A stretch of 64,000 nucleotides of DNA from Candidatus Methanomethylophilaceae archaeon (GTDB lineage: Archaea > Thermoplasmatota > Thermoplasmata > Methanomassiliicoccales > Methanomethylophilaceae), in assembly GCA_944320495.1 (NCBI GenBank), contig CALUHR010000001.1, forward strand, positions 1-64,000. The letters run 5' to 3'. Below, piece by piece: positions 6,986 through 58,187 of this stretch. The position numbers and the translations under genes were made by a program. How positions within the stretch are numbered: the first letter of the stretch is position 1; each line of letters opens with the position of its first letter. The notes under the pieces were generated by a model, which saw nothing but the letters and a program-made list of their open reading frames with translations, had not been told where the DNA came from and searched no databases.

Positions 6986-7788
6986 ACGCCGTCGGATCCA
7001 TGAGGCAGGTCCTCGAGGTAACCCGTTTCGAGACGCTCAGGAAGGTTAAGAGCTGGAGACTTCTGTTCCCCTTGATATGCGCCGTCGCCGTATGTGCCCT
7101 GGCATTCGGCAACGGGAGCGGCGAGATGAGGGGCTATGCGGGCACGGAGTCCGCGTTGGCACTGCTCAGACCGTTCCTGGCATCCGCGCCCCTGATCGCG
7201 GCGATAGCCGCGACCGTGCTCTGCACGGAGACCCTCTCGGAGGAGTTCGAGAGGGGTTCCGGATACATCACGTTCACCAAGCCGGTCCGCAGGGAGACGG
7301 TCTTCGCTGGCAAGTTCCTATCGGGGTTCCTGGTGTCCCTGATCGTATTGGCAGTCTATTACGCCCTGACGTTCGCGATATGCGCCGCGTTGGCCGGCGA
7401 GGTGCCCGCAAGGGCGCTGGCGGCCGTCCCGCTGGCGGTGCTGTACCTGTTCGCGGTAACCGGGGTATGCATGCTCTTCAGCGCACTGGCACCCAAGGGC
7501 AGCATGGCGATGATGGCCGCCTTCCTGCTGATGGTGGTCCTGCAGATCTTCATGCAGAACGTGTCGTTCTCCACCGAGCCCTGGTACAGCCTGGGATACG
7601 AATGCGGGATCCTGGGCGACTATCCTCTTGGGAACCAGACCGAGTTCGATGTCGATGTGTTCGGCAACGCGAGGGCGGAAGACTATGTGCCAGACGTGAG
7701 CATCGCCTGCGTCGTCATGGCCGTGTACGCGCTCATCTCCACTGCGCTCGCCGTGACGGTGTTCAGGTACAGGAACATGAGATCCCGA
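6982..7788 (+). CDS. ABC-2 type permease; ends CGA-TGA (7791 under the standard code)
   Basis: About six hydrophobic segments; EEFERGS...KPVRR motif; ATGA overlap with the ATPase gene. Confidence 0.85.
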
Positions 7789-7880
7789 TGAGATCCCGGA
7801 CAGGGGGAGGGGGACGACTCCGGGCCGGCACCCCCTTCCCAAGAATGTTGTCGAGGGGGCTCAAGCCGCCCCCTCAGTGC

Positions 7881-8387
7881 TCAGGAGTTGAACCTCATGG
7901 TCCTGAGGAGCTCCCTTGCGGCCTCCACGGGGAACCCCTCCGGGGGATCCGTCACGAACGCCTCGAGCATCCTCCTGACCTCACCGCTCTGGGGGAGCAG
8001 GAACCCCGTCTCGCGGATGAGGTCCTCGCCCATCAGGCGGTCCGATCTGCGTACCGCGGACATGAGCGTCCTGAGGCCTGCGTCGTCCGTCGTCTCCGCC
8101 ACGTTCCTGGCGATGGCCTCCTGAACGGCCTTGCTCCTGGAGATCCCTCTCACGGCGTCGACGACCTTGGCGTCCTTGGGCTGCTGGTGCGGGTAGTCTA
8201 GGGGTATCATGCAGATGGCGGAGTTGGGACAGGACCTGGCGCAGTCTCCGCATCCGATGCATTTCTTGAAGTCGATCTGCCCGGTCTCGGTGTCCGTGGC
8301 CCCGGTGGGGCAGACGTAGAGGCACATGCAGTCCTTGGTGCAGATCCTGAGGTTCCTGGAGGCGATCATCCTCGGCATCTCAGGCAC
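7881..8387 (-). CDS. 4Fe-4S ferredoxin-domain protein
   Basis: [12 protein letters not shown] and [12 protein letters not shown] motifs. Confidence 0.85.
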
Positions 8388-9054
8388 CTCCCTGGATCCT
8401 GAGGATCATGTGCCCGGGGACCTTGCAGACGGGGCAGACCTCCGGAGGGTCGTCCCCGATGTAGATGAACCCGCAGATGTCGCAGACGTAGACCCCGGTG
8501 TGCTCCAGGAACGACGGGTCCTTCCTGTACCTCTCGAGCAGGGTCCTCATGATGAGGGTGGCCTTCTCGCTCCAGGTGAGCACCCTCAGGGCGCCCCTGT
8601 CCGACATGAGGGCGGCCGTCCCCTTGGCGTCGTTATAGGCCATGAGGTCGGCGTTGATCATCCTGAGGAGGGTGTCGATCCCCTCGTTGTCCTCGGTCAC
8701 GGTCCTGGATTCGAAGTAGTCAGCGATCTGTCCGAACAGCTCGGCCTCGCGGGTGAGCTGCTGCACCCCGCATCCCCTCTTCAGGTTGGAGCAGAGGGCG
8801 CTCAGCTGTCCGGGCGTGAGCTCGCGGAGCTCGTCGGTCTCCCATCCGGATATCTCCGGGGCGGGGGCCTGGGCGGTGGGCGCGGCCTCCTGGACCGTCG
8901 GGGAGGATGGGGACTCCTCCTCGTCCATGGGTTCGAAGCCCTCTTTGCCCTCGCCGCAGACGGGGCAGCACCAGTCATCGGGGAGGTCGGAGAACTTAAC
9001 TCCCTCCTTCTCCTCGTCGTAGATGTATCCGCAGACGCCGCATCTGTATCTCAT
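8380..9054 (-). CDS. Rubredoxin-domain protein with N- and C-terminal rubredoxin-like knuckles
   Basis: CGVCGYIY...WCCPVC at the N-terminus; CDICGFIY...CPVCK at the C-terminus. Confidence 0.85.
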
Positions 9055-9142
9055 GGACGTGCCAGCGCATCGGCCCTTTTTATATTCGGATGCCTCCGGA
9101 TGGGGATTGTGAAGGTCCGTTCAGACCCGGCGCAGAGGATGC

Positions 9143-9781
9143 TCGCCGATCCCTGGATGCCAGCCTCCTCCCCGTCGAGTAGGCGTTCTCCAGGTCCTTC
9201 GGGAACTGCGTCCTCCTGACCTCGGCCTTGTGCTCCGCATCGAACCCTGCCGCCCTGTACTTCGAATAGTCGTCGAACTGCAGGGTGTCGCAGCAATGAT
9301 GGTGCTCCACCGTCCCTCCGAGCTTCATCAAAGGGAGCATGGTCCGCTCGTAGAGCTCGTCGTATCCGCGGTAGTCGGATGGGAGGTTCATCGTGAAGAA
9401 GAACGCGACGTCGGTGCGCTTGGGGTGTATTACCCGGGTCGCGTCGTCATAGGTCATCGTGACATATCCCAGACGCTCGAGGAAGTTCCTCATCATCCCG
9501 GTGACGTCACCGAAGTAGATCGGGGAGCCCAGCAGGAGGACGTCCGCATCGAGTGCCCCCTCGAGCACCGGTGTCAGACCGTCCCTGTGATAGCATCTGC
9601 AGTAGTCCGCGTTCCTCCTGCGACAGGCGAAGCAGCTGACGCAACCGGAGAAGTCCAGGTCCGCGAGATGGACCATCTCAGTATCCGCGCCCACGGATGC
9701 GGCGCCCTCGAGGGCCCTCTCCAGGAGCATATCGGTGTTCCAGCCCTTCCTCGGGCTTCCGTTGACGGCCATGACTTTCAT
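9143..9781 (-). CDS. Flavodoxin family / NADPH-dependent FMN reductase (iron-sulfur flavoprotein-like); ends at CGA
   Basis: GSPRKGWNT, CVSCFAC and GSPIYFG motifs; C-terminus AYSTGRRLASRDR then CGA at 9145-9143. Confidence 0.85.
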
Positions 9782-9790
9782 AGCATCACA

Positions 9791-10333
9791 TCGGTGGCAG
9801 CTCTTCCCCATCTCGTATGCCTGCAGCATGAACGGAGTGCCAACCACGGTCCCCTTCTCGAAGACTCCGGTGGCCTCGACGGTCCCGCCTTCGACGGAAC
9901 CCTCCAGGCATTCCGCCAGGCCGCGCATGCAGTCGATGGCGCAGGAGGTGACATGGTCGTGGGTCTCGGCCCCGGCGGCGATGTAGTAGAACGTCTTGCC
10001 GCTGACGGCCTTCCAGCGGGCGTTGAACCTGTCGATGAGGGCCTTCAGCTGGGCGTCCACCGAGTAGAAGTACACCGGGCTGGCCAGCACGATTATGTCG
10101 GCGGCCTCCATCTTGGATATGATCTCGGGGACGTCGTCCCTGATGCAGCACTCTCCCCTGCCGTCCTTGCAGTGGTAGCAGGCGGTGCAGAAACCTATCC
10201 TCCTGTTCCTGAGGTTGATCTTCTCCACGTCATTGCCCGACTCAACTGCTCCGCGTACGAACTCGTCGCAGAGGAGGTCCGTGTTGCCTCCTTTGCGCGG
10301 GGACGCCGAAATCACAACTATCCTCTTGGACAT
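9791..10333 (-). CDS. Flavodoxin family / NADPH-dependent FMN reductase paralog; ends at CGA
   Basis: SASPRKGGNT, CTACYHC and ASPVYFY motifs; ends AYEMGKSCH then CGA at 9793-9791, 9 nt before the next ATG. Confidence 0.85.
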
Positions 10334-10497
10334 GCCTGGTTCCTCTTGGTGTCCCGTATCGTCGGATGAGGGGATATCGGTTGCTGTGACTGCCGTCATG
10401 TCGCAGAATCTCGAACATACGCCTCGGTGATAGATGCGGGAGGATGCAAGGCGGATGGATATCCGCCTCATCCTGAGAAGGTGTGTTGGTGTTTGAT

Positions 10498-10525
10498 GAC
10501 CCGGACCCTGTGGAAGGTCCGGGTC
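10498..10525 (-). terminator. GC hairpin just downstream of the CNNM/HlyC gene
   Basis: GACCCGGACC-N8-GGTCCGGGTC, a perfect 10-bp stem. Confidence 0.5.
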
Positions 10526-10533
10526 GGAGGGCC

Positions 10534-11790: not shown

Positions 11791-11801
11791 GCACCGTTAT
11801 T

Positions 11802-11880
11802 GTCGGAATCAGATTCTGACATATGTTGTCGGTGGATTATCTATCGTTCCAACTATATGAATGTGTCTGATGACAGACAC
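11802..11880. promoter_or_regulatory. Two palindromes in the promoter region of the CNNM gene
   Basis: GTCGGAATC-A-GATTCTGAC (11802-11820, one mismatch) and GTGTCTG-ATGA-CAGACAC (11863-11880, perfect). Confidence 0.4.
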
Positions 11881-11893
11881 AGGGGGCTCGTAT

Positions 11894-13279: not shown

Positions 13280-13346
13280 GAACCGGCCGTTGCGAGGTAT
13301 GATTTTAAGCTTATGGGTCTGAGGATGGTCCGGCAGGAGCCGCGGG

Positions 13347-14740: not shown

Positions 14741-14828
14741 AAGGGATCCCCGTCCTTCCGCTTCCTCTCGGAGGACGATCGGTCTGATTGAATAGGTCCC
14801 CGTCGGGACCGTCGTAGAATCATCAGGT

Positions 14829-19700: not shown

Positions 19701-19953
19701 GCACGCCGTCGACCCCCTCCCTCTCTATGATCTTGGCGATGTTGGCGGCCTCGAGCGGCTCGATGTAGACGCTGTCGGCGGTGTCGGTGTCGGTCTGGAT
19801 GGTGGCGGGGTTCGAGTTGACCAGGACGGTTCTGTACCCCTCCTCCTTCAGGGAGCGGCAGGCCTGCGTTCCGGAGAAGTCGAACTCGGCGGCCTGGCCG
19901 ATGACGATGGGTCCGGACCCGATCACCATGAGCTTCTTGTAATCCTTCCTCAT
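16744..19953 (-). CDS. carB: Carbamoyl-phosphate synthase large subunit
   Basis: GSGPIVIGQAAEFDFSG start, two ATP-grasp domains and a C-terminal MGS domain; 1069 aa. Confidence 0.98.
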   Translation of the reverse strand: MRKDYKKLMVIGSGPIVIGQAAEFDFSGTQACRSLKEEGYRTVLVNSNPATIQTDTDTADSVYIEPLEAANIAKIIEREGVDGVLSGMGGQTALNICSELADSGELERLGCSLVGTQPDAIAMSEDRELFKETMERIGEPVPVSRSVNTIEEAKEAVKIIGRYPVLVRPAYTLGGTGGGIAHNEEELEEICARGLAYSRIHQVLIEESVLGWKEYEYEVMRDSNDNCIIICNMENLDAMGIHTGESIVVAPCLTLSDTDHQRLRTAALKVIRALNIEGGCNVQFAFNPANGDYRLIEVNPRVSRSSALASKATGYPIARVATKIAVGYTLDEIPNRITGTTCAAFEPSIDYVVIKIPRWPFDKFRTVDRHLGTQMKSTGEVMSIGRTFEEALLKGLRSLEIGVKGLDRVEVTDDEIREELVNATDKRIFVMAEALRKGWSPEEVADLAKWDIFFVRKLLNVVKMEKRLAEGLTPEVLREAKRMGFSDETIADICGIHQQDVRAMRKSEDIVPVYKMVDTCAAEFEAQTPYFYSTYGHRSEAKPEEGKKKVVIVGGGPIRIGQGIEFDYCCVHGVMALQEEGVDAVIINNNPETVSTDYDISDRLYFEPLTLEDVLNVIESEDADGVICQYGGQTSVNLAVDLERSLKGTKTRILGTTPDDMDVAEDRRRFSKLMDELGIKQPKSGTGYSFEEAKAIAEDIGYPVLVRPSYVLGGRAMEIVYSTEELKTYVDTAVKVSRNHPILIDKYLTEATEIDVDCVCDGTDVYVGGIMEHVEYAGCHSGDATMVLPPFTLKPKVIEEIVAIADKVALALHIKGLMNLQLAVKDDEIYMIEANPRASRTVPFISKATGIPLAKVGVKVMLGKTLKDFGLKGYRSIDHYAVKESVFPFLKLPGVDSILTPEMKSTGEVMGIDEDFHTACYKAQVAAGNKLPTEGGVYITVNDQDKPRIVQVARDLKEMGFTIYATKGTSTFLREHGVETVPVFRLDENQKPNAVGLMRDGDINLIINTPSLKSGAVRDGYTMRRLAVELEIPYVTTVPGAEMAVGSIKVARSEKLSVRSMKEFHNLVN

Positions 19954-21186: not shown

Positions 21187-22227
21187 ATGCGCATCCTGGG
21201 CGAGGACCGTGGGTCCGGCAGCGTGAAGGTCCTCATCGAGACCGACGAGGACATCTGGCACCTCTACAACGTGATCGAGGTCGGGGATCTCGTGACCGCA
21301 TCCACCACACGCAGGGAGGAGAAGTCGGCCGACAAGATCCGTGCCGAGAGGGCGGAGAAGAAGAGGATGACCCTCGGGGTCCGCATGGAGAAGATCGAGT
21401 TCTCCGAGGAGGACCTCCGCCTCAAGCTGCTCGGCACCATCGAGACTGGCCCCCAGGACATCGGCCAGCACCACACGCTCATCCTGGAGACGGGCGATTC
21501 CCTGACGATCGCGAAGACGCACTGGAGGGAGACACAGCTGGAGCGTCTCCAGCGCGCCGTCTCGGATTCGAAGAAGCCGAGGATCGTGTTCGTGTCCCTC
21601 GACCAGGACGAGGCGACGATAGCCGTCCTCAGGCAGTTCGGCCTGAAGGAGGTCGTCACCATAAGGTCCGGGAGGTCCGGCAAGCAGTACGCGGAGAAGC
21701 CCTCCGCCGACGGCTACCACGCGGAGATAGCGGCGAAGCTGGCGCCGCTTATGGAGCCCAACATGCCGCTGGTGCTCCTCGGCCCCGGGTTCGAGAAGGA
21801 GACCCTCTCGGAGGACCTGAAGAAGGCGGATCCGTCCGCGTTCGGCAGGATGTACGTCTACCACACCGGTCAGTGCGGGATGGCGGGGATCAACGAGCTC
21901 CTCAAGGGGGGCATGGGCGCCGACGTCCTCAGGGACTCCGCGGTCGGAACGGAGATCGAGGCCGTGGAGAGGCTGATGGCCGAGATATCCAAACCCAACG
22001 GCCTGGGGACCTACGGGACCCAGGAGGTGATGGACGCCGCCATGGCCGGAGCGGTCGACACGCTGCTGGTGCTCGACTCCAAGGTCCGCGAGCAGGACAT
22101 GGACGACGTGGTCCGCGCCGTGGAGTCCCAGAAGGGCAGCGTCATCGTGGTCTCGGGGCAGCACGACGGCGGTCGCGCCCTCGCATCCCTGGGGGGCATG
22201 GGAGCCATCCTCAGGTACCGTCTCCGA
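21187..22227 (+). CDS. pelA: Archaeal Pelota (aDom34) ribosome-rescue factor; ends at CGA
   Basis: ETDEDIWHLYNVIEVGD start, LLGPGFEK, and the family C-terminus GGMGAILRYRL directly followed by CGA at 22225-22227. Confidence 0.92.
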
Positions 22228-23614: not shown

Positions 23615-23995
23615 ATGACCATCCTGAGGGTAAGCGAACTTATCGAATGCAAGCACATGACGAGCATACTCGCCTGTCTGTACATGCGCGGATCCATGGG
23701 CAAGAGCGAGATCTACGACACGATCTCCAACAGCCCCAACATGGCACTGAAGCTCCGCATCCTCTCCGATGAGGGGCTGGTGGAGTCGAACCAGGTGGGG
23801 AGGCGCACCGAGTACAGTCTGACCGAGAAGGGGAGCTCCGTCGCGGAGAAGCTCTGCGGGCTGGAGGAGCTCGTCTACGGGAGGGTCGGGGACCTGAACC
23901 ACCTGGAGGAGGGGACAATCCATCTGGACGGGGACGTCCCCGACGAGACCCGCGACTGGTTCGAGGACCGCAGGAGGGGCTGTTGTCCCCTGCGA
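23615..23995 (+). CDS. Winged-helix transcriptional regulator (HxlR/ArsR-like); ends at CGA
   Basis: wHTH pattern GKSEIYDTIS...KLRILSDEGLV...EYSLTEKG; CGA at 23993-23995 abuts the convergent paaK stop. Confidence 0.75.
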
Positions 23996-28178: not shown

Positions 28179-28757
28179 ATGGGACAGCAGGACGTCTGGG
28201 ACTCGTTCTACCGCTCCAACGGCCGGGCGTGGAGGGGCAACTGCAGGATGCCGGACCCGCTGGGAGGCGGGGGCGACGCCCTCGACCTGGGGTGCGGGAG
28301 CGGCAAGAGCGTGTCCACGCTGATCGACATGGGCTACAGGGCGGTCGGCCTCGACTTCTCGGATGAGGCCGTGTCCATGTGCAGGGAGAGGTTCGGCGGG
28401 GCGGCGGAGTTCGTCTCCGGCGATGTGCTGGCACTGCCGTTCGATGACGGTTCCTTCGACTATGTGACGGCTGTCCATGTGCTCGAGCACCTGACCGACG
28501 AGGCTCTCCGTACGGCTGCGGGGGAGATCGCGAGGGTCCTGCGCCCGGGCGGATACGCCTTCGTCAGGGACTTCGCCCCGGGGGACCTGAGATCGGAATC
28601 CAGGGAGGGGTCCGACATCAGGTACATTCACCGCACCCCCGAGGAGCTGGTCTCAGCGTTCGGGGACGTGGAGGTCGTGTCGGCTGGTGTCGTGGAGGAG
28701 AAGACGCGGTTCGGGGCGGTCCGCCGCCGTTCCGAGGTCCTCCTGAGACGCAGGCGA
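28179..28757 (+). CDS. Class I SAM-dependent methyltransferase; ends at CGA
   Basis: ALDLGCGSGK, GDVLALPFDDGSFDYV and EIARVLRPGG motifs; ends SEVLLRRR then CGA at 28755-28757. Confidence 0.85.
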
Positions 28758-28808: not shown

Positions 28809-29165
28809 ATGAAGTGCCCCCGTTGTGGTCACGAGAATCCGGATGAGGTCCTCTTCTGCGAGGAGTGCGACTGGAGGGTCGACGTCCCTTACATACCGGA
28901 GAAGAAGCGCAATCCAGTGCATTTCGCAGGCGCGACGATCGTCCTGGGACTCATCGCCGCGGTGTGCGCGTTCATGAGCGGAACCGAGCTCGTGGCACTG
29001 GCCGTCGGAGCCATCGCCCTCATCCTGGGAGGATACTCCATGGGCGTCGCCAGACTAGTCGAGACCGACAAGACCCAGCTGTGCCTCGCCATCTCAGGTG
29101 TCGGTATGATCCTCGGGGTCCTCGGATTCCTCATCGGCTTCGCGTCCTTCGTGGGAGCGATGTGA
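28809..29165 (+). CDS. Zinc-ribbon membrane protein
   Basis: CPRCGHEN...FCEEC plus three hydrophobic helices; CTATATG TATA-like element about 25 nt upstream. Confidence 0.8.
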   Translation: MKCPRCGHENPDEVLFCEECDWRVDVPYIPEKKRNPVHFAGATIVLGLIAAVCAFMSGTELVALAVGAIALILGGYSMGVARLVETDKTQLCLAISGVGMILGVLGFLIGFASFVGAM

Positions 29166-29686
29166 TGGCAGTCTACCGCGGGAAGTACATACTCGAGGGT
29201 CTCGGAAGCATAAGCCCCGAGATGGAGCACAACCTCGACATCGCCTACGACATCTGCATGTCCTACAAGGGGGACTTCCCCTGCGAGATGTGCGGGAGGT
29301 GCTGCCACCAGCCCCACATAGTCGTGAGGCCGGAGGAGATCGACCGCGTCTCCACGGCCGCGGGCATCCCCCTTCCCGTCTTCATGACCGAGTACCTGGT
29401 ACGCATGCCGGACGGAAGGTTCCTGTTCAGGAAGACCGATCCGTGCGCGTTCCTAGGGAAGGACAACAGGTGCACCATCTGGAAGGACCGTCCTCAGATC
29501 TGCGACGACTTCCCCTACGCGGTCTCGATGTTCATGAGCCGCGTGTATCTCGCGCTCACGAATCCTGACGCGGACATCATGTCCCTCATATCCTACATGG
29601 ATGACGAGTGGCCGTGCACTCGCGTCATCAAGGCGGACATAGCCTCCAAGATAGAGGCGGCCCGCAAGGACGTCGTCGTCCAGCGA
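29165..29686 (+). CDS. YkgJ-family cysteine-cluster (putative Fe-S/Zn) protein; ends at CGA
   Basis: CEMCGRCC, CAFLGKDNRCTIWKDRPQICDDFPY; CGA at 29684-29686. Confidence 0.85.
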
Positions 29687-30461
29687 TCGGGTGCTCCGAG
29701 AAGAAGCCGAGCAGCTCGTCCGCGTACGCGTCGAACGGTATGCCATGGCCCTGTCCCTCCAGGATGATCATCCTGCTGTCGGGGATGCGATCCGCCACCT
29801 TGATCCCCTGCTCGCAGGGGACCATGATGTCCTCGTCGCCGTGGATGAGCAGTGTCGGTGCGGTTATTCCGAGGTCCGGCTCGCCGGAATCGTTGTCGCC
29901 GATGGCGTCCAGCTGCAGGAGGAGACCGTGCGGGTCCAGGGGCTCACGCGGCAACGGTGCGTCCCTCCCCTCGGCCTCGAACCTCCTGAACGTGGACTCG
30001 GTCAGGCAGAACGCGTTTATCGACCTGAACAGGCACTCCATAGGGGCCCTCCCGTCCAGGACCATGCCGATCATCCCCCTCAGGACGTAATCCGATCTGG
30101 CCGGTCTCTGGAGATAGGTCCCCACGAGGGTCAGGTCGGCGACCCTGTCGGGATGCCTGCAGGCGAGCTTTCTCGCTATGTGGGATCCCATGGACCAACC
30201 CACCACATGCGCCTTCCCGATCCCGAGTTCGTCCATGACGGCGACGGCGTCGTCCGCCATGTCGGCCATCGAGAAGGGTCCGTCGTACACGGTGTCGCCC
30301 ACCCCGCGATTGTCCATCGTCACGCAGAGGCACCCATCGAGCAGAGGAGGTATCCTCCTCCAGTAGGAACCGGCGGCTCCGAACCCGGCCAGTAGGATGA
30401 CGGGCTCCCCGTCACCGGAGGTCTCGTAGCATATCCTGGCCCCGACGGATTCGGCGAACAT
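29676..30461 (-). CDS. Alpha/beta hydrolase; ends at CGA
   Basis: DNRGVG, GWSMG nucleophile elbow, IHGDED and GQGH motifs; ends ELLGFFSEHPIAG then CGA-CGA. Confidence 0.88.
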
Positions 30462-30532: not shown

Positions 30533-31771
30533 ATGTCCGAGTCCAAGAAGAGGATCCTTCTGATGGTCCTCGACGGTGCCGGTGACCGCGCCTGTCCCGA
30601 ACTCAGGGGTCTCACCCCGTTGCAGCACGTCAGGACGCCGAACCTGGACTGGTTCGTCGAGCACGGGATCGCCGGGCTCTGCGATCCCATATCGCCCGGG
30701 GTGCGCGCCGGCAGCGACACCGCCCATCTCTCCATCCTGGGGTATGACGCCCGGGCCGTGTACACCGGCAGGGGTCCTTTCGAGGCCATCGGGGCGGGTG
30801 TGGACATACAGCCCGGCGATGTGGCGTTCAGATGTAACTTCGCCACCGTCAACAGCGACATGGAGATCCTGGACCGCAGGGCAGGCAGGATAAGGGAGCC
30901 TGAGACGGAACAGCTCGCCGAGGCGCTGGACGGCATAGAGATAGACGGGATCGAGTGCTCGGTCCACGCCGGAACGGAGCACAGGGCGGTGCTCGTCCTG
31001 AGGGGGGACGGGCTTTCGCCCGATGTCACGGACTGCGATCCGGGGGAGGACTCCCATCTGCTCAGGTGTGAGCCGCTCACCGAGGAGGCGCAACTCACCG
31101 CGGACGTCGTCAACGGATTCCTGGACGAGGCCTACGAGAGGCTAAGGTCTCACACCGTCAACAGGAAGAGGTCCGCCGCCGGCCTCCCTCCGGCCAACAT
31201 TCTGGTCCCCCGTGGGGCTGGCGGATATCCCGACATCGAGTCGTTCCAGGAGAAGTACGGCATCAGCGCAACCTGCGTTGCCGGTGTCGGTCTCGTCAAG
31301 GGCATATGCAAGGTCTGCGGACTGGACGTCTATCCGCTCCCGCCAGTCTGCGACGGGGGCATGGACTCTGATCTCATCATGAAGATGGAGGGAGTCCTCG
31401 AAGCTCTCGAGGAGTACGATTTCGTCCTGATGAACATCAAGGCCCCGGACGTGGCGGGGCATGACGGCGACGCCAAGGCGAAGAGCGAGGTCATCAAGCG
31501 TATAGACGCGGCGGTGGGATTCTTCCGTTCCAGGATGCCTGAGGACCTGGTCGTCGTGATTACCTGCGACCACTGCACCCCGTGCTCGCTCCAGGACCAT
31601 AGTGGCGATCCGGTGCCCATAGCGTTCTACACCCAGGGCATGATCTGGGACGATGCCGGGGAGTTCAGCGAGACCGGATGCTCCAGGGGCATGGTCGGGA
31701 GGATCAGGGCGACAGACATCATCCCGATCTGCATGGACCTGGCAAACCGCACGTCGAAGTTCGGATCGTGA
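30533..31771 (+). CDS. apgM: 2,3-bisphosphoglycerate-independent phosphoglycerate mutase (archaeal type)
   Basis: VLDGAGD, GSDTAHLSILGYD, YTGRGPFEA, KAPDVAGHDGD and TCDHCTP motifs. Confidence 0.93.
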   Translation: MSESKKRILLMVLDGAGDRACPELRGLTPLQHVRTPNLDWFVEHGIAGLCDPISPGVRAGSDTAHLSILGYDARAVYTGRGPFEAIGAGVDIQPGDVAFRCNFATVNSDMEILDRRAGRIREPETEQLAEALDGIEIDGIECSVHAGTEHRAVLVLRGDGLSPDVTDCDPGEDSHLLRCEPLTEEAQLTADVVNGFLDEAYERLRSHTVNRKRSAAGLPPANILVPRGAGGYPDIESFQEKYGISATCVAGVGLVKGICKVCGLDVYPLPPVCDGGMDSDLIMKMEGVLEALEEYDFVLMNIKAPDVAGHDGDAKAKSEVIKRIDAAVGFFRSRMPEDLVVVITCDHCTPCSLQDHSGDPVPIAFYTQGMIWDDAGEFSETGCSRGMVGRIRATDIIPICMDLANRTSKFGS

Positions 31772-32218
31772 GCACAGGCCCAGTTGTACCGTGAGGCTAC
31801 CTCCTGTGGTGACCGGGACCGTCAGTCCCGCCGAGATGTCCGGTGTTCCGTAACCGTCCCCGATGCTCGTCCCCAGGACGTCACCGGATGGTGCCGAGAA
31901 CGACAGATCCAGCAGATACGGTCTCCCCTTGCAGAAAGCATCCAGAGACTCCTCGAGATATTCCAGCGCCTCGCCCTTTCCCGTGACCAGGGACAGAGCC
32001 GCCATGTCGGACAGGCGGACCAGCGTGTCGTCCCCCTCCGACATGTCCGACATGCGGACCTTGGAGGACATCACGTCCTCCAGGAACCCGTAGGCGTCCC
32101 TGTCGTCATCCGCACCGGTGTCCGCGACCTGGGTGACCACGGAGGCCGCGATCATTATGACGAAGATGAACAGCATGGCGTCGACCATGGCGACGAATCC
32201 GCGGTCGCTCGTGCGCAC
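31766..32218 (-). CDS. Small protein with a class III (pilin-like) signal; ends at CGA
   Basis: GTG start; RTSDRG followed by hydrophobic FVAMVDAMLFIFVIMIAASVV; ends LTVQLGLCS then CGA at 31768-31766. Confidence 0.65.
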
Positions 32219-32616
32219 AGGACCACCTCGAACACCGCGAGCACCTCCCTGCCGCCGTCGCACCCTATCACGGACGTGACCGACCTCGACCACGGCGAGC
32301 CGTCGGTGGACCCGATCACGAAGGGCCCCGTCGCCTCGCAGAACCCCCCGGGCACGGTCACTGTGACGGAGGCGCCGGAAAGGCCCCTGGACCCCAGATA
32401 CCTCTCGATATAATCCTGAAACGCGGGGATAAACTCCCCGTCGACGATCTCTCCCGTGATTCTGTCGGGATCAAGCCCCTCGGTGGGGTCCGACGTGATA
32501 CCTGCCGCGCCGACCGCCAGTCCGAGGAATGCCGTCAGCACGAGGATGACGGCCATCGCGGCTATCATCGACTCCAGGAATCCCATGTCGCCCCTGTCGT
32601 CCGCATACATGGTCAC
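32209..32616 (-). CDS. Small protein with a class III (pilin-like) signal; ends at CGA
   Basis: ADDRG followed by DMGFLESMIAAMAVILVLTAFL; ends VFEVVLCA then CGA at 32211-32209, overlapping the next GTG start. Confidence 0.65.
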
Positions 32617-34755: not shown

Positions 34756-35289
34756 TTGGACGAGGAACCGCGCCCCATGGAATCCAAATTCGGATTGGAC
34801 AGGCTGTTCGGGCATTCGGAGGAGCCCCCTCCGGCAGAGGTCTGCGACGACCTCCTGACGATTGACTGCAGGGGATGCGGGTACGCACCCGTCCCCGGGT
34901 CCAGGGAGTGCCTTGGATGCATGGTGGAGAGGATGAGCGCCGTAGGCGGCGCGGACAGGCTGATCCTCCGCACCGGGAGGGACACCGAGATATCCGGCAG
35001 GGCGGGCATGGCCGTCAGGGAGGCGGCTTCGCTTAGGCGTTGGTCGATGCCCCAGGAGCCTCCCAAGGGGCGCTGCAGGGCATGTCCGGTGTCTAGGCAT
35101 GGGATCCTCTCCCGCGCGTGGGAGCGCTTCCCGGAGGGCATGACGGACGGTCTGGCGGAGGAGGCTCTGTCGCAGGTCCCGGAGAGGGACGGGTGCAGGG
35201 AGTGTGTGGAATCCACCGTTCGCGCCCTCGCGCAGCTGGACGAGGGCATGGCGGAGATCCTCTCCAAGATGACTGGTGGTCTGCCATGA
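34756..35289 (+). CDS. Cys-rich hypothetical protein preceding the secretion ATPase
   Basis: Several CxxC pairs (CRGC, CLGC, CRAC, CREC); ATGA overlap with the next gene; start may be TTG 34756 or ATG 34777. Confidence 0.7.
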   Translation: MDEEPRPMESKFGLDRLFGHSEEPPPAEVCDDLLTIDCRGCGYAPVPGSRECLGCMVERMSAVGGADRLILRTGRDTEISGRAGMAVREAASLRRWSMPQEPPKGRCRACPVSRHGILSRAWERFPEGMTDGLAEEALSQVPERDGCRECVESTVRALAQLDEGMAEILSKMTGGLP

Positions 35290-37043
35290 AACTGCGCCTG
35301 CCGCCGTTCGCGACCATCATCCGCCCGTCGCCGGAGGACGATTTCGTCATCCCAGGGACCAAGGGCGGGGGACAAAACCCGCCCGGGAGACCTCCGTCCG
35401 CGCTCCAGAGGGCAGGGGGCAGCCCCTCGGCGTTCTCCGAGGCCTTCACGGTGCTCATGGGGGAGAACGTTCGCACCAAACCGTCATACACGGACTGCTG
35501 GATAGCATCGGTCCCCGAGCTCCGCCCGATCGCGTCGTACATGACAGACATGGGCTCCGTCCTCATCGGGCTGTCAGAGGGCGGTGAGACCGTGTACTCC
35601 GTCACACCGAGGGAGTACGCGTACCCCGATCCGCTAAACGCGGTGGTGATGGACGTCATCGACGGGATCCGCGACGTGTACAGGGACGGCGGTGGGAGTC
35701 TGGACCGCGACACGGTCATGGGCATGACCCGCTCGGTCCTGACAGATAGGTGGGACGACCTGGAGAGGGCGTGCGGGGGCGGGGACGTGGAGTCGGTCAT
35801 GAGGGACGTCTGCGCCATTGCGTACCGCCATTCCGTCGGCGCGGGGATATTCGAGGTCCTGCTGGCCGACCGCCACATCGAGGACATCTATGTGGACGCA
35901 CCTTGCAGCATGAACCGCATCCACGTCACGGTGAACGGGATCAACGGTCTGAACTCCCACATCAGATGCTCCACCAATCTGATGGCGGAGGAGCGCGAGG
36001 TATCCAACCTCCTGAACATCCTGAAGAGGGACAGTGGCCTTCGCTTCTGCAGGTCCTGCCCCGTCCTTGAGACGGATATGCGCGGGTTCGACGCGAGGGC
36101 GACCGTGGTGGGCTACCCGCTCAGCCCCAGGGGGAACGCGATTGCCATCAGGAAGCACTCCGTACGCCCGTGGACCCTTTCCCGTTTGATCGCCAACGGC
36201 ACCGTCAGCCCGAGGGCAGCCGGCATCCTCTCGTTCATAGTCAACAGCAGGGCGACCGTCCTGATATGCGGGGCGCGCGGGGCAGGCAAGAGCGCCCTCC
36301 TCAGCGCCCTGATGTTCGAGTTCCCGCTGAGCCAGAGGATACTCACCATCGAGGACACCCTGGAGCTGCCTGGAGACCACATGAGGAGGATGGGCTACAA
36401 GGTGCAGACCATGCTGGTGGACGACCGCATCCAGGGGTCCGTCTCATCCCGCTCCGACGAGGCGTTGCGCGTGTCCCTGAGGCTGGGGGAGTCGGCGATA
36501 GTCATGGGGGAGGTCCGCGGGGAGGAGGCCAGGACGCTCTATCAGAGCATGCGCGCGGGCCGCGCCGGGAGCGCGATCATGGGCACGGTGCACGGCGACT
36601 CCGCCGCATCCGTCTACCAGAGGATGGTCTTCGACATGGGCATCCCACCCGAGGCGTTCGGCGCCACGGACATACTGGTGACCCTCGGGACGGTGAGGGA
36701 CAGGCGCACGGGGAACCTCATCCGCAGGGTTAACGAGCTGGTGGCCACCGGTACATCCCCGGGAGAATTCCTGGATGTCTCAGGGGTGGACGGGCTTCTC
36801 GCATCGCCGTTCGCAGAGAGGGCCCTGTCCTCCCTTCAATTGGGCCGCAGGGACGTCGTGAAGGAGATCAGGGCGAGGTCGATGATGCGCTCGTATCTGG
36901 CGTCCCTCGGCACCGAGGACGAGGGGTTCCTGGGACCGGAATGGGTCCTGGCGTCGAACGAGATCCTCGCCGGAATGCCCCAGTCGGCTTCCGCGGAGGA
37001 AGCCCTGGCCGTGCTGAAGGGGAGGACCGGTAGGGATGACCGA
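35286..37043 (+). CDS. Type II/IV secretion ATPase (TadA/CpaF/VirB11 family); ends at CGA
   Basis: Walker A GARGAGKS, TIEDTLEL, IVMGEVRGEEA and GTVHG motifs; CGA at 37041-37043 gives an 8-nt overlap with the next ATG. Confidence 0.9.
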
Positions 37044-38424
37044 TCCGAGGAGGCTGACCAACGAGGGCCCGACGGTCGTCGGGCTGATGACCTCCGTCAT
37101 AGAGTCGGGGGGATCCCTGGATACGGCGGCCAGGGCGGTGTCCGAGGAGGGGCCGAGACTCTCCGCTGAGCTGTTCTCCGGAGCCGTGAGGCTCACGGAC
37201 ACCAAGGGCTCCGTCGGAATCTCTCAGGCGCTATCCGAATCGCTTTCCGTTCTGCCGGAGTCCGCTTCGGGCTACAGGCAGGCGATGCTGCTGTGCATCT
37301 CCGCATCCGAGGCGGCCGAACCGCAGGAGAGGCTCAGGATCCTCAAGGAGGCTTCCGATGTGGCCCTGGACGCCGTGCGCATCATTGGGGAGAAGTACGC
37401 CGCAGGCCTCTCCACGCCGTGCATGGCGGTCTTCGGCCTGGGGATAATGGCACCTATGATCCTGATGTCCATACTGCCGATCATGGGCCTCGGCGGGATG
37501 TTCGCTGAGATGCCGGTGGACAGCGGCACGATGCTCATGGCGACTCTGGTCCTGATCCCGGCGGCGATTCTCTGCCTGGCGTACTGGCTGCGCCAATCGA
37601 ACCCGTTCCTGGAGCGTTCGGGGAGTCCCCGCGACGCGGTGTGCGCACTACCACTCCTCACAGCAATCCCGCTCTATCTGGCGATGATGTCCCTGCGCAC
37701 GGGGGCCGTGGAGGCCCTGATTCTCTCGATCGCCCCGTCCGCGGTGGCCTGTCTGATAATGATGTTCGACGGCCGCAGGGCGGACCAGGCCAGGGCCAGG
37801 TCCGAGAAGGGGCTGAGGGACTGCGTCTTCGAGCTTGGCAACTCCCTGCTGGGAGGAGACAACTTCGAGACCGTGGCCGTGGAGGCTGTGTCGTCCAGGG
37901 TCGAGTGCAGGGATGTGGGCACTGCGCTCAGCAGGGAACTCGACCTGTGCAGGGGAGATGTCCGCGGTGCGATCAGGAGATCGGTGGGACCGGTATCGCC
38001 CGAGGTCTCCAGGACCCTCTGCGACATCCAGCACTGCTCCGAGAAGGACACCGAGGACGCGGGGAGGTTGGCCATCGCCGTGGGGAGGCAGTACCAGAAC
38101 ACGTCCAACATCAGGAACGAGCTGGGCCTGAAGCTCAAGGGGATGACCGACATGATGGTGGGCACGGCGATGCTGTTCGCCCCGATGGTCCTCGGGATGA
38201 GCACATCGATGCTCGGGCCGCTAAGCGAGATATCCGGATACGCCGGCCTTGAGGGCACGGAGGTGGTGCTGGCCGTGTATCTCGTAGAGCTCTGCGCGAT
38301 CATCGCCGTGCTCACGTCGAGCCTGGGGGACGGCGATGGCATCAGGGGGATGGTGTGGAGGTTCTGTCTCTCGTGTCCGATCGCCCTGGTCGTGTTCTGG
38401 TTCTGCATCGGGGTCCAGCTCCGA
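37036..38424 (+). CDS. TadB/TadC (GspF-like) membrane platform protein; ends at CGA
   Basis: Two soluble regions alternating with membrane helices; adjacent to the ATPase; ends FCIGVQL then CGA. Confidence 0.7.
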
Positions 38425-38456
38425 AGGTGTTAACCCAGGGGAGGGGATGCGAGGGT

Positions 38457-38960
38457 ATGGACGGCAGGACCAGACTGTTGGTGGCGGGATGCATCGCATC
38501 TGGGGTGGTACTCGCCCTGATGTTCCTGTCGCCCCTCCTATCCCCCTACGGTCTCTTCAGGGGGCTTGACGGGTCCCCCGGATTCATAGACGGAGGCTGG
38601 GAGGGCGGAGGCCCGGCCAGTCTGGCGTATCTGCTGGGGGATCTCGTCTGTCATCAGGAGGAGGCCAGGAGCCTGATCCTGAACGGCTCCCAGATGCCCG
38701 TCTGCGCGAGGGACACCGGGATCCTCATAGGTCTCACGATCGGTTTCGCCGCATGTCTGCCCATCGGCAACAGGCTGGCGGACAGGCGCATCGCGGCCCT
38801 GGGCGTGGTGCTCGTAGCGGTCATGGCGGTCGAGTGGCTTGTGGAGACGACGGGCTTCGATTCGCAGGCCTGCAGGCTCATCTCTGGGGTTTCTGCCGGG
38901 GTCGGTGCGAGCCTATTTCTGGCTTGGATGCTATATAGGCAGGATGACCGGGGAGAGCGA
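38457..38960 (+). CDS. DUF2085-like membrane protein; ends at CGA
   Basis: CHQEEARSL...NGSQMPVCARDTG motif; about four hydrophobic helices. Confidence 0.75.
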
Positions 38961-39666
38961 CGCGGGTATCGACTGGGAGTACGGCAGGGCCGCCTCCGAT
39001 GCGGTGGAGTGGCTCCTGAAGGAGGGATTCCTGAAAGAGGACGACTGCTCCATGAACGTCGCCTGCGGTCGCGGCGGATTCGCCGTTCCGATGAGCAGGG
39101 CGGTCCGTGTGCTGGTCTGCATGGACAGCAGCAGGGACTCCCTCGACATAACCGGTCAGCGCTGCGCCGGGGGATGTCGCACCGAGCTCTTTCAGCAGGA
39201 CTGGCGCTCCTACGTCCCCGCCAGGGGGAGGTACGACTCATGTGTCATGTCGCCGTCGTACCTGTGCTTCAACATGGAGGCCATACGCAGGATCGAGACA
39301 GTCTCCAAAAGGGGATGCGCCGTGGTCTTCCCGCTAGAGTTCGACTACCGCAGGCTCCGGAAGGGATTCCTCCAGAGTCTCGGCGTCGATGCGGGCTTCC
39401 TGTCGATGCCGGAGTTCCCTGACCCGCGCCCGTTCGCCGTCTGGCTGTCGGAGAAGGGCAGGAACATGGAGACGCGTCGCTTCCAGTCCACAGTGGAGTG
39501 TCCCGACGAGGTCTTCAGGACGGCGATCGTCCGCGATTCCGTCCTTCACGGGGCCGACGAGGCCGCCGCAGCCTCCATGGCCGACAGATACGTCTCGAAG
39601 GTCAGCAGGGGCGGTGCGGTCAAGTACAAGTTCTCCGCCAACGTCGTTGCCTGGAACATGGTGCGA
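38944..39666 (+). CDS. Divergent class I SAM-dependent methyltransferase; ends at CGA
   Basis: MNVACGRGGFA motif I, MDSSRDSL, GRYD; ends VVAWNMV then CGA. Confidence 0.65.
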
Positions 39667-51415: not shown

Positions 51416-52042
51416 TCGGTGCCTGAGCTTGTCCTTCCACGACCTCTTCAGATTGCCGTCCTTGTCGAACTTGGTCCTCATCAGCTTGTCGTAGTTGCTC
51501 CGGATCTTCGGGTCGGCCGGCTTGATCTCCATCAGCAGCTCCAGCTCCGCCTTCGCCTTCCGATAGTCCTTGAGATCGTTCAGGAGCAGGACCGCGTAGT
51601 TCTGATGGTAGACGTAGTTGGACGGATCCGTGGCGATAGCCTTCTCGTAGAATTCGCCCGCCCTCCTGAAGTCAGTTATCTGGTTGCGGAGGAATCTGGC
51701 ATACTCGTTGTACAGGTCGCCAGAGGGACAGAGTTCCACAAGTCTTTTGAAGAGCTCGTCGGTCTCCTTGTTGTTCCTCTTGTCGCGGGCGAGGACCGAG
51801 ACCTTCGCCTTCATGGCATCGGTGTTGACGGGGTCCAGATCCAGGATGACGTCCAGCTGCATCAGCCCGTAGCTGACGTCCTGGAGGTCCCTGATGGCGA
51901 TCTCCGCGAGGACCAGCCTGGGCTTGGTGTTGTGCGGGTCTGTGGCCAGATACGCCTCCAGCGTGTTAGCGGCTCCCGTGGGGTTGCCGCTGGACGCCTG
52001 GTTCCTCGCCTTGGTGATGGCCTCGAATGCCGGATCGCTCAT
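51416..52042 (-). CDS. Tetratricopeptide-repeat protein; ends at CGA
   Basis: Repeated helical TPR-like units (YEKAIATDPSN, LLMEIKPADP); ends WKDKLRH then CGA at 51418-51416. Confidence 0.8.
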
Positions 52043-52148
52043 GACACCCCGAGCGGTGACCTGTTTATAATGGGTTTATCGGAAGCCTCGTCGGAGTCGG
52101 GATCGACCGTTCGAAGGTCTCTTAACCGCGATGGCGGTTGTACGGTCG

Positions 52149-52541: not shown

Positions 52542-52774
52542 TGAGGTCTCAACGAACATCAACACCGTTAATCTGGGCAGTTAGTTTTAAATATAAGATG
52601 AAAATGCCCATTACAGGGAAGCCCGACGTCCGTAGCCCGTCAGTCGTTTTCCTCCTTTACCCGACACGGAACCATTTACTGGCGACGGCTCTCCCCCCCC
52701 CCCTTCTTGTCCAACAACATCTGATGTCTGAGATCGGACGCATCCATCTTTAATCCGCATCCTCATGACGGGTC

Positions 52775-53614
52775 GTGGATCGCAGTTCCATCGATCGTTC
52801 GGATTCATCCGGTAGGAAGGAGCCGGATGAGGGCAGGAGTTTCGATGTCGATGCATATCTGGCTCGCATCGGGATGCCCCGTCCCTCCGAGCCGGATCTC
52901 GGATACGCCGACTCCCTGGTCCTCTCGCATCAGTGCTCGGTCCCATTCGAGAATCTGGACTGCTACGACCTTGGGAAGGTCCCGGACACATCGATGGGAG
53001 CCGTGTTCGCGAAGGTCGTCCGCGATCATCGCGGCGGGTACTGCTTCGAGATCAACAAGCTGTTCTCCCGTCTGCTCTCGGAATGCGGATACAGGGCGTG
53101 GCCGATATCCTGCAGCGTCCTTCACGGCAGCGACCATGCGGAGATGATGCTTCATCGCGCCACGCTGGTCGAGATCGACGGCTCTGTCTACTACTGCGAT
53201 GTCGGCATCGGAGGTCCGCAGCCTGCCGGGCTTGTCCCCCTGGACGGATCCAGGACCCTTCTAGGAGAGCACTATTCCGTCGAGAGGGACGATGGGCCCT
53301 GGTGCTATCTGGTCCGCCATCGCGACGACGGCACATGTGCCAGATTGGTCGCGTTCCTCGACTTCCCCGTGCCGGATGGGTTCTTCGTTCCATTCAACCA
53401 CTACTGCTCCACCAGCGCGGATTCCAAGTTCACCAGGAGGCGCATCGTCAACATGCGCACGCATCGCGGCAGCCTGTCCCTCGTGGGCGGGACACTGACC
53501 GAGCGTTGCGACGGGAGGACCACCGTGACGGAATACGATCGCTGCGAGGATCTGGCAATGATGCTCCGCGAGAAGTTCGGGATAGAGGTCCAGCCGTCCG
53601 ATCTGAGGGTGCGA
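52775..53614 (+). CDS. Arylamine N-acetyltransferase; ends at CGA
   Basis: DAYLARIG, VPFENLD, RGGYCFEIN (catalytic Cys), LHRATLV (His) and YCDVGIG (Asp); ends EKFGIEVQPSDLRV then CGA. Confidence 0.9.
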
Positions 53615-53624
53615 TCCCCTTCGG

Positions 53625-54764: not shown

Positions 54765-54838
54765 GGCGAGAAGATTGCTGTCTCATTTAAAAAGGGTCTG
54801 ATACCTTTTTATCAGATGTCACTGCGATGCGGGTACTC

Positions 54839-55993: not shown

Positions 55994-56044
55994 GGCTCGC
56001 GCGCGTGCGCGTCCATTTATAGGGCATCCCCGTTCCGCGTAAGC

Positions 56045-57703
56045 ATGCCAGTCATAAACTTCAGGTACAGCGACCTGTGCTCGATGCTCGGGGAGGAGGT
56101 ACCGGAGCAGACGCTCGTAGACAGGATCCCGATGATCGGGGCCGACATGGGGGACACCGAGGGCGGTTCCGACGAGATGTCTGTGGAGTTCTTCCCGGAC
56201 CGTCCCGACATGTACAGCGTCGAGGGTGTAGCCAGGGCCATGAGGGCCTTCCTCGACATCGAGCCCGGGATGAAGACCTACCCCGTGGGGGAATCGGACA
56301 TCGAGGTCACCATCGACCGGAGCGTCAAGGAGGTCCGTCCGTACTTCCTCTGCGGGATCGTACGCGGCGTCGACGTCACCGACGAGCTCCTGAAGTCCAT
56401 GATGGAGACGCAGGAGAAGCTCCACATCACCATCGGCAGGAAGAGGAGCAAGCTGGCAATCGGCATCCACGACCTCTCCAAGGTCAAACCACCGTTCATC
56501 TACAGGCTCGCCGAGCCCCACTCCATCCGCTTCGTCCCCCTCGCCATGGACGAGGAGATGGACATGGCCGAGATCCTCGAGAGGAATGAGAAGGGCAGGG
56601 AGTACAACAAGCTCCTGGAGGGGATGTCCGAGTACCCCGTCATCCTCGATTCCGAGGGGCAGGTCCTTTCGTTCCCGCCCATCATCAACGGCCGTCTCAC
56701 CACCGTGACGGTCGGCAGGCACGACCTCTTCATCGATGTCACCGGAAACGACGCAAAGGCCGTCAAGGGCGCCCTGGACATCGTCGCTTGCGCTCTCGCC
56801 GAGCGTGGCGGGAAGATCGAGTCCGTGATCATGCACGAAGGGGACGCCACGTTCAGGTCCCCAGACCTCACCCCCACCGTCAGGAGGATCTCCGCATCCG
56901 CCTGCGACAGGTTCCTGGGCAAGGACATCGGCCCGGAGGGCACCGTCGAATGCCTCCGCAGGATGGGCATGGACGCCGTCGCCGAGGGAGACGAGGTCAC
57001 CGTGACCATCCCGCCAGTCAGACTGGACATCATGCACGACGTGGACATCTACGAGGATGTCGCCACCGGATACGGCTTCGAGAGGTTCGGGGGATCGTAC
57101 ACTGTCACCCAGACCCCTGGTGCCCTGCTTCCGGAGACCGCGTTCTCCGAGTCGCTGAGGGACATCCTCGTCGGTCTCGGGTTCACCGAGGTCAACACCC
57201 TCACCCTGAGCAACCAGAGGGAGGAGTTCGAAATCCCCGGATTCCCGGAGGTCGATGTCGTGCGCGTCCTCAACCCGATCACCGAGGACCACACATGCCT
57301 CAGGGCGTACCTCGCCCCCAGCCTCGTCAGGATCCTCAGGCACAACAAGCACCGCGACCTGCCCCAGAGGATCTTCGAGGTCGGATACGTAGTCAGGGAC
57401 CAGCTCACCCAGCTCCGCCTCTGCGCCATGGCCACAGCGTCCAAGGTCCCCTTCACCGAGGTCAAGTCCTGGACCGAGTCCATCCTCCGCGAGGCCGGCG
57501 TCGAATACACGCTCGAACCCTGCGAGTACCCCACATTCGTCCGCGGGAGGGGCGCCCAGGTGATCTCAGGAGGGAAGGTCATCGGCATGTTCGGCGAGAT
57601 GTCCCCGAAGGTCGTCGTCGACTACGGCATAACCCATCCCATCGGATTCTGCGAGCTGGATCTGGAGCCCATCATCGCCGGGAAGAGCGACACCCTGTTC
57701 TGA
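56045..57703 (+). CDS. pheT: Phenylalanyl-tRNA synthetase beta subunit (archaeal type)
   Basis: FPDRPDMYSVEG, QEKLH, FPPIING, RLDIMHDVDIYED and NPITEDHTCLR motifs. Confidence 0.96.
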   Translation: MPVINFRYSDLCSMLGEEVPEQTLVDRIPMIGADMGDTEGGSDEMSVEFFPDRPDMYSVEGVARAMRAFLDIEPGMKTYPVGESDIEVTIDRSVKEVRPYFLCGIVRGVDVTDELLKSMMETQEKLHITIGRKRSKLAIGIHDLSKVKPPFIYRLAEPHSIRFVPLAMDEEMDMAEILERNEKGREYNKLLEGMSEYPVILDSEGQVLSFPPIINGRLTTVTVGRHDLFIDVTGNDAKAVKGALDIVACALAERGGKIESVIMHEGDATFRSPDLTPTVRRISASACDRFLGKDIGPEGTVECLRRMGMDAVAEGDEVTVTIPPVRLDIMHDVDIYEDVATGYGFERFGGSYTVTQTPGALLPETAFSESLRDILVGLGFTEVNTLTLSNQREEFEIPGFPEVDVVRVLNPITEDHTCLRAYLAPSLVRILRHNKHRDLPQRIFEVGYVVRDQLTQLRLCAMATASKVPFTEVKSWTESILREAGVEYTLEPCEYPTFVRGRGAQVISGGKVIGMFGEMSPKVVVDYGITHPIGFCELDLEPIIAGKSDTLF

Positions 57704-57713
57704 GGCGCATCCC

Positions 57714-58187
57714 ATGGAAGTCGGCGACAGGTTCCCGGAGTTCAGGCTCAGGGACGAGAACGGCGAGGAGCTGGACAGCTCGTCGCTGGAGGGCATAAGG
57801 TACGTGATCTACTTCTATCCGAAGGACAACACGCCCGGATGCACCAAGGAGGCCGAGGAGTTCAGCGCCAGCATCGGGCAGTTCCTGATGCGCAACATCC
57901 CTGTGATAGGTGTGAGCAAGGACTCCGTCGAATCCCATCGGAAGTTCATCGACAAGCACCAGCTCAGGGTGAAGCTCCTCAGCGATCCCGACCACGAGCT
58001 GATGGAGAAGGTCGGCGCCTGGGGCACCAAGGTCTCCTACGGCAAGGAGACCGTCGGCACCATCAGGTCGACCTTCCTGGTCGGCAGGGACGGGACCGTC
58101 GAGGCCGTCTGGCGCAACGTCAAGGTCAACGGGCATGTGGACAAGGTCCTCGCATGCGCCGTGTCCTGTTCGAAATCGAAGAGCTGA
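57714..58187 (+). CDS. bcp: Peroxiredoxin, BCP subfamily
   Basis: YFYPKDNTPGCTKEA motif. Confidence 0.95.
   Translation: MEVGDRFPEFRLRDENGEELDSSSLEGIRYVIYFYPKDNTPGCTKEAEEFSASIGQFLMRNIPVIGVSKDSVESHRKFIDKHQLRVKLLSDPDHELMEKVGAWGTKVSYGKETVGTIRSTFLVGRDGTVEAVWRNVKVNGHVDKVLACAVSCSKSKS

Follow-up and report, generated by a model that had tools for sequence, protein, structure and literature searches.

Does an archaeal chromosome use CGA, an arginine (Arg) codon of the standard code, to end its genes? The question is raised by the first 64,000 nt of contig 1 (G000:C1:1-64000, hereafter the window) of a Candidatus Methanomethylophilaceae archaeon (assembly GCA_944320495.1), in which a sequence-only reading had noticed protein-like genes closing with an in-frame CGA and had proposed a sense-to-stop reassignment of this codon. 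The genome under study comprises 1.77 Mb in 14 contigs, with 61% GC and an estimated completeness of 90.6%. We find that CGA marks gene ends, has been purged from coding sequence and does so as a property of the lineage, and to this extent the proposal stands. The accompanying suggestions, namely that the cognate tRNA has been lost, that the release factor aRF1 has visibly changed and that UGA and CGA alone (YGA) make up the stop set, are not supported. No account of CGA as a stop in this clade came up in a search of the literature.

Genes were called with TAA, TAG, TGA and CGA as stops, using a crude codon model self-trained on the genome. This yielded 1,773 genes over 90% of the genome, with 1,232 ending in TGA, 444 (25%) in CGA, 62 in TAA and 35 in TAG. 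The 62 genes ending in TAA, together with the TAA found in orthologues of CGA-ending genes (below), show that the stop set is wider than YGA. In the middle of crude table-11 ORFs (open reading frames), CGA was counted 29 times and CGG 191 times in 118,132 codons, and CGA accumulates in the last tenth of ORFs. Since TTA is as scarce in mid-gene positions (24 in the same set), the rarity of CGA proves little on its own.

Coding potential changes at the codon itself, well past anything that chance would give. When 206 ORFs from across the genome were aligned at their first in-frame CGA, the mean coding potential remained at about +0.75 until five codons before the CGA and was -0.68 right after it; CGG, taken as the control codon, gave no such step. 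The in-frame sequence following the stop scored -0.77 for CGA, -0.76 for TGA, -0.63 for TAA and +0.23 for TAG, and since TAG is positive where CGA and TGA are negative, the measure tells a sense codon from a real stop. Frameshifts or assembly errors were considered as the source of the non-coding tails and rejected, since the step lies exactly at CGA and drift out of frame would begin about 20 codons upstream. A miscall linked to a methylation motif, TGATC being read as CGATC, was likewise discarded: TGATC is abundant (5,409 vs 6,919) and as common as expected. No meaningful enrichment of back-up stops was found after CGA, the median distance to the next standard stop being 23 codons for CGA and 27 for TGA.

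TAG, for its part, behaves as a sense codon, with 59% of TAG-cut ORFs continuing to code. It was seen at no orthologous stop within the genus and is used as such by sister families. The genome encodes PylS, the pyrrolysyl-tRNA synthetase (G000:C9:67854-68522 (-), 260.8 bits).

Relatives were sampled as 20-kb loci from 17 species of the same genus and 16 genomes belonging to six other families of the order, and these loci were aligned to the proteins of the studied genome; for comparison within the family, 18 of its other genera were also sampled. The gene for Pelota (21187..22227 of the window, + strand) closes with CGA at 22225..22227. The protein closes with LRY[KR]x in 30 relatives, where a TGA or TAA stands at an offset of 0-3, and the place of the stop is taken by CGA in the same-genus species G018, G014 and G010 as well as in the studied genome. 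A clear pair is provided by loci L014 (...CTG GAA TGA) and L015 (...CTG GAG CGA). EtfA (58176..59237(-), CGA at 58176..58178) behaves similarly. In eight same-genus species an aligned four-residue motif (DRSL in five of them, with DRLL, ERSL and DKSL in the others) is followed by TGA, one more species has EESL-TAA, and CGA stands at the same position after DSAL (the studied genome and G018), ERRL (G010) and DRSL (G014). Same-genus orthologues of the T2SSE/Tad-type ATPase (35286..37043, +, CGA at 37041..37043) share one end point too, marked by TGA (e.g. VGAE-TGA) or by CGA.

Taken over the CGA-ending genes, orthologues within the genus carry at the same place CGA in 13 cases, TGA in 20 and TAA in six. 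For orthologues from other families, the median position of the standard stop is +1 codon, in a set of 28 comparisons of which 16 concern Pelota. The sequence-only reading had allowed that it would be in difficulty if relatives carried the same C-terminal extensions; the orthologues instead stop at the matching place.

CGA gene ends are an inherited property of the genus and not an artefact of one assembly, and they arose in a family in which CGA was already rare. In all 17 same-genus species, whose GC content ranges from 0.49 to 0.64, six CGA were met in about 83,600 aligned codons; five of these lie at alignment edges or are the stop itself and one is truly internal. Each locus from the 16 genomes of other families holds 7-33 CGA, which for the most part align to Arg, and the CGA-stop trait was not seen in these genomes. 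Within the family, the 18 other genera use CGA rarely yet as sense (1-13 per 2-5 thousand aligned codons), and outside one of them, g17, only 3 of 237 gene ends are of the CGA type. Related genomes had also been proposed as a check against T-to-C miscalls, and here the pattern is present in every independent assembly of the genus that was examined, two complete genomes among them.

Genus g17 may be a second genus using CGA as a stop. At its locus L307 (G097:C1:1375200-1395199), a CGA lies well ahead of any standard stop at two of 19 gene ends, and after one of these the start of cbf5 follows in frame; CGA is very rare in g17 coding sequence. In the genus under study CGG is much depleted as well, with 0-17 per locus (L035-L051) vs 26-85 in GC-rich sister families (L052-L067).

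The tRNA that would read CGA as Arg is kept, and it is altered. Contrary to the supposed loss of tRNA-Arg(UCG), a gene for it lies at C13:413317-413390 (+), scoring 55.7 bits against the Rfam tRNA model, in a full tRNA set that contains UCG and also has a tRNA(CCG) gene. It was also found in 20 species, one of which has a complete genome, and its anticodon arm is aberrant. A pattern search returned only coding sequence as candidates in five species; one of them, G008, was then found to have the gene when a full Rfam tRNA scan of its complete genome identified a tRNA(tcg) whose anticodon loop is unusual, while the other four were covered by the pattern search only. Pair 31-39, at the base of the anticodon stem, is mismatched in 13 of 13 distinct sequences from the genus; five copies from sister families have a perfect 5-bp stem. 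The other four stem pairs co-vary within the genus (TCAGA/ACTGA, CTAGA/ACTAG, TTGGC/ACCAA, GTGGA/ACCAT). The tRNA of G008 (L186) has instead a C-C mismatch in the stem and a C at position 33, where U33 is near-universal. The tRNA is evidently kept under selection with an abnormal anticodon arm throughout the genus, and the 31-39 mismatch would be expected to weaken its decoding of CGA. A tRNA(UCG) that is retained but weakened would make CGA a contested codon.

The absence of internal CGA, as described by the sequence-only reading, holds true within the window. Genome-wide it does not, for one CGA each was found inside aRF1, ribosomal protein L18e and a flavodoxin gene. Those in aRF1 and L18e stand at conserved Arg positions of intact essential genes, a kind of site that the earlier reading had itself counted against a stop role. 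Being few, conserved and in an atypical context, they recast the claim as one of a context-dependent stop and do not overturn it. The requirement for Arg at CGA in L18e and aRF1 would account for the retention of tRNA(UCG).

The aRF1 gene (G000:C2:85936-87195 (-)) contains one in-frame CGA (C2:86932-86934), at the conserved Arg88 (SIAA-R-LKTY) and in the context GCT-CGA-CTC. Codon 88 is CGA in 22 of 23 aRF1 copies from the genus, while neighbouring synonymous sites vary (CTC, CTG, CTA or CTT; AAA or AAG; ACC, ACA, ACG or ACT). In other families this codon is CGC, CGT, CGG or AGA, and in no other genus of the family is it CGA. The context is always NCU-CGA-CUN, and the frame continues through the CGA with Arg as the conserved residue and no frameshift. 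The exception is the copy of G005 (L100, G005:C189), from an assembly with 8% contamination: its codon 88 reads AAG, and the only in-frame CGA that it holds is at Arg35. Another contig of G005 bears a further, partial aRF1.

In L18e (G000:C13:191557-191934 (-)), the CGA encodes the Arg of IW-R-D in 20 of 21 loci of the genus and in nine of nine sister-family loci, and the block ATCTGG-CGA-GA is invariant in all sequences compared. This suggests a constraint at the nucleotide level, perhaps an RNA element or a decoding pause, that would be older than the code change. A search for conserved RNA structure around the aRF1 and L18e codons with RNAalifold gave only weak, unconvincing helices.

Two further internal codons were noticed. 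The Flavodoxin_4 gene (G000:C8:55307-55837 (+)) has its CGA within the domain (GKTI-CGA-PFCT), and is either read through or a fresh pseudogene. In the CarB of G018 (L035, G018:C86; about 99% protein identity), the conserved Arg301 (EVNP-R-VSR) is encoded by CGA; the studied genome has CGT there (carB, 16744-19953). The G018 codon, which lies in an essential gene and is the one truly internal CGA among the six counted in the genus, could reflect tolerated leakiness, a recent deleterious change or an assembly error. Most of the other internal candidates from the coding-potential screen were set aside, as they fall between two domains or genes or past the last domain.

Terminator CGA codons have a distinct context. 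The preceding base is U in 10% of cases; at +4, U accounts for 54% and C for 17%, and at +5 U is found in 7%. Among the two bases following the codon, TC (25%), TG (21%), CG (12%) and GG (11%) prevail; CT, the pair present in aRF1, accounts for 0.7% and GA, the pair in L18e, for 3.7%.

As to the release factor, no genome was found to hold more than one full-length aRF1, second matches being fragments or, in G005, the partial extra copy. The NIKS, YRCDSxF and GT(E) loop elements are intact. An aRF1 modified to tolerate C in the first codon position had been suggested, but the NIKS and YxCxxxF motifs and their flanks match those of sister genus g12, in which CGA is Arg. Substitutions flanking NIKS were rejected as the determinant: QASNIKSKTTM is unlike the sequence of other families, yet two sister genera, g12 and g17, have the very same residues. 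No position other than D27 and C152 is both fixed in the genus and absent elsewhere.

Returning to the window, the four-stop call gave 60 genes, of which 42 close with TGA and 18 with CGA. The sequence-only reading had arrived at the same total with a split of 43 and 17; all of its 17 CGA ends are borne out, with CGA (TCG for genes on the - strand) at each position, in frame and closing a protein-like ORF. The extra one, at 968..970, ends the gene 968..1597(-), for whose protein no Pfam family was found. Three of the ends are close to uninformative by themselves, since a standard stop soon follows. After the CGA of the ABC-2 permease gene (6982..7788, +; CGA at 7786..7788), TGA comes immediately, and the pair could be a terminal Arg followed by TGA; TAA comes three codons after the end of a membrane-protein gene (37036..38424, +; 38422..38424) and seven codons after that of a methyltransferase gene (38944..39666, +; 39664..39666).

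Decisive cases are those in which a table-11 reading fuses neighbouring genes. For Pelota, whose eRF1_3 profile is matched to position 106 of 106 at the last residue before CGA, it gives an 856-aa in-frame chimera with a homocitrate-synthase-like gene (HMGL-like domain). At the FMN-reductase gene 9791..10333(-) (CGA at 9791..9793), the next gene in the same frame starts four codons on, and table 11 merges two FMN_red domains. The methyltransferase gene 28179..28757 (+; 28755..28757) is followed in the same frame by a zinc-ribbon gene and is fused to it; its same-genus orthologues have CGA or TAA at offsets -1 to +5, and one has TGA at +21.

Pfam models are also essentially complete at the CGA of three further genes: an alpha/beta-hydrolase (29676..30461(-), CGA at 29676..29678; Abhydrolase_1 to 243 of 245), a DUF2085 protein (38427..38960, +, 38958..38960; 89 of 90, with a 154-codon tail that is not protein-like) and an arylamine N-acetyltransferase (52874..53614, +, 53612..53614; Acetyltransf_2 to 236 of 240). 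The other FMN-reductase gene (9143..9781(-), CGA at 9143..9145) has a 21-codon tail that is not protein-like. Behind the HxlR-like gene (23615..23995, +; 23993..23995), of which same-genus orthologues also stop at CGA, the tail runs antisense through a neighbouring gene, as do further tails in the window. The CxxCxxCC gene (29162..29686, +; 29684..29686) has same-genus orthologues in which CGA, TGA or TAA stands at an offset of 0-1. This gene and the alpha/beta-hydrolase gene form a convergent pair overlapping by 11 nt (29676-29686), both closing with CGA (TCG at 29676-29678 for the - strand, CGA at 29684-29686 for the +). The gene 31766..32218(-) (CGA at 31766..31768) has a likewise placed CGA in its G018 orthologue, the CGA of 32209..32616(-) (32209..32211) overlaps the start of the next gene, and that of the T2SSE/Tad-type ATPase gene overlaps the next start at 37036. 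A TPR gene (51416..52042(-), CGA at 51416..51418) shows CGA as the in-frame end of a protein-like ORF.

We propose that CGA is probably a context-dependent stop, likely a leaky one, competing with a weakened tRNA, and that aRF1 is possibly autoregulated through its own CGA. On this proposal CGA would be a fourth termination signal, ending about 25% of genes and purged from coding sequence. In the usual context, (C/G)-CGA-U-(G/C), release would win, most likely and most simply by way of the one aRF1; at a few protected sites the weakened tRNA-Arg(UCG) would win and CGA would be read as Arg. Codon 88 of aRF1, whose CGA is derived and under strict conservation, would lie in such an anti-terminator context, so that synthesis of full-length aRF1 would depend inversely on its own termination at CGA, giving negative feedback. 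We advance a bolder form as possible, if somewhat short of probable: that CGA truly has two meanings in a cellular genome, stop by default and Arg at protected sites, by virtue of a deliberately weakened tRNA with a 4-bp stem and of self-sensing by aRF1 through codon 88, which would make it the first case beyond organelles of a sense codon reassigned to stop, and one whose regulatory circuit is still intact.

Several points weigh against the context-dependent stop. The codon-reading motifs of aRF1 are unchanged, and nothing seen in its sequence appears to explain how C would be accepted as the first codon base. A tRNA with a UCG anticodon that is conserved and folds well should read CGA as Arg. 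By all appearances CGA must be Arg in aRF1 and L18e, so termination cannot be absolute. The stop comparisons with other families are dominated by a single gene, Pelota, and where translation ends is judged here from DNA sequence.

The unchanged aRF1 motifs, shared with a sister genus in which CGA is Arg, would be expected if no release factor recognised CGA and ribosomes merely stalled there. CGA would then be a 'hungry' codon served by a defective tRNA; ribosomes would be split by Pelota and ABCE1, and peptidyl-tRNA hydrolase would free the protein. The genus-wide aberrant anticodon arm of tRNA(UCG) fits such an account, as does the fact that the family already used CGA rarely before the change. 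A costly rescue pathway would however be needed by one gene in four, Pelota included; moreover, the +4/+5 preference specific to terminators resembles the influence that context has on release factors, and the conserved CGA in the aRF1 gene would be left without obvious purpose. We consider stalling and rescue unlikely. An aRF1 without motif change would equally be expected under site-specific C-to-U editing of the mRNA, in which terminal CGA becomes UGA and decoding is standard. CGA and TGA are one transition apart and interchange at orthologous stops, and the distinct surroundings of terminal CGAs could represent a motif for editing, but more than 400 edited sites per genome would be required, while the tRNA(UCG) defect and the conserved CGA of aRF1 would go unexplained. 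C-to-U editing of mRNA is not known from archaea, and we regard this explanation as very improbable.

The simplest alternative is that CGA is still Arg everywhere and just extremely rare, the apparent ends being real extensions or fusions, or T-to-C errors of sequencing or assembly. The presence of tRNA-Arg(UCG), the near-equal rarity of TTA in mid-gene (24 vs 29) and the three of 17 window cases with a standard stop within 1-7 codons would all agree with it. It is already contradicted by the step in coding potential exactly at CGA, by the standard stops at the same place in orthologues and by the clade pattern, which extends to 17 of 17 same-genus species with differing neighbour codons; read-through would also produce implausible chimeras and antisense tails, and no motif-linked deficit of T-to-C type was found. 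We accord it scarcely any likelihood.

Sense-to-stop code changes are, to our knowledge, confined to organelles. The established cases (NCBI tables 2, 22 and 23) are AGA/AGG in vertebrate mitochondria, UCA in Scenedesmus and UUA in Thraustochytrium mitochondria. As with CGA, gene ends are marked by a codon to which the standard code gives a sense meaning and which coding sequence no longer contains, and AGA/AGG are likewise Arg codons. Those genomes are tiny, whereas CGA is found in this role in the 1.77-Mb genome of a free-living or gut archaeon with about 1,800 genes, some 25% of which have the new stop. In the organelles the cognate tRNA was lost; here it is kept, along with the Arg meaning at a few conserved sites. 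In bacteria, prfB (RF2) is autoregulated through an in-frame UGA that requires a +1 frameshift. aRF1 resembles it in having a conserved in-frame copy of the factor's putative target codon, and in that full-length synthesis would fall as activity rises; it differs in that its CGA is read in frame as a conserved Arg, and the feedback is suggested by conservation only.

Stops that are ambiguous and depend upon context are known from Condylostoma magnum, Parduczia and Blastocrithidia, alongside UGA for selenocysteine and UAG for pyrrolysine (see also PMC13092985). Such systems share with CGA the two meanings per codon and the deciding role of context, but there standard stops gained sense, whereas here a sense codon gained a stop meaning. 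Part of the Blastocrithidia mechanism is a tRNA with a 4-bp anticodon stem, the short stem strengthening a near-cognate tRNA; in the genus studied here the short stem belongs to the cognate tRNA and would weaken it.

Among prokaryotes, CGA and CGG have been reassigned to tryptophan (Trp) and other amino acids in bacteria (PMC8629427). In two archaeal assemblies from hydrothermal vents, with about 50% GC, CGG stands for Trp and there is no tRNA(UCG), and a stop role for CGA was speculated upon there without gene-end evidence; screens of the Codetta type cannot infer stop codons (bioRxiv 10.64898/2026.04.02.715157). These Arg-codon reassignments have in common with ours that CGN codons change and that CGA is absent from recognisable domains. 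The vent archaea are, however, unrelated, read CGG as Trp and are without tRNA(UCG), while in the CGA-stop genus CGG, though depleted, is still met within coding sequence, alongside a tRNA(CCG) gene; and what is speculation there is shown in this genus by orthologous stop positions.

Annotation with table 11 mispredicts about a quarter of the proteins of these genomes, through false extensions, false fusions such as that of Pelota with homocitrate synthase and the suppression of neighbouring genes, and these errors enter public protein databases. If the proposal is true, it would be the first sense-to-stop change of the code outside organelles, and would show that such a change can spread through some 1,800 genes. 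The CGA of aRF1 would then be an archaeal counterpart of prfB autoregulation. Apparent intermediates have been kept, namely a codon very rare across the family, a tRNA that persists in altered form and essential genes in which the old meaning is needed, and these make the route of reassignment testable in this lineage.

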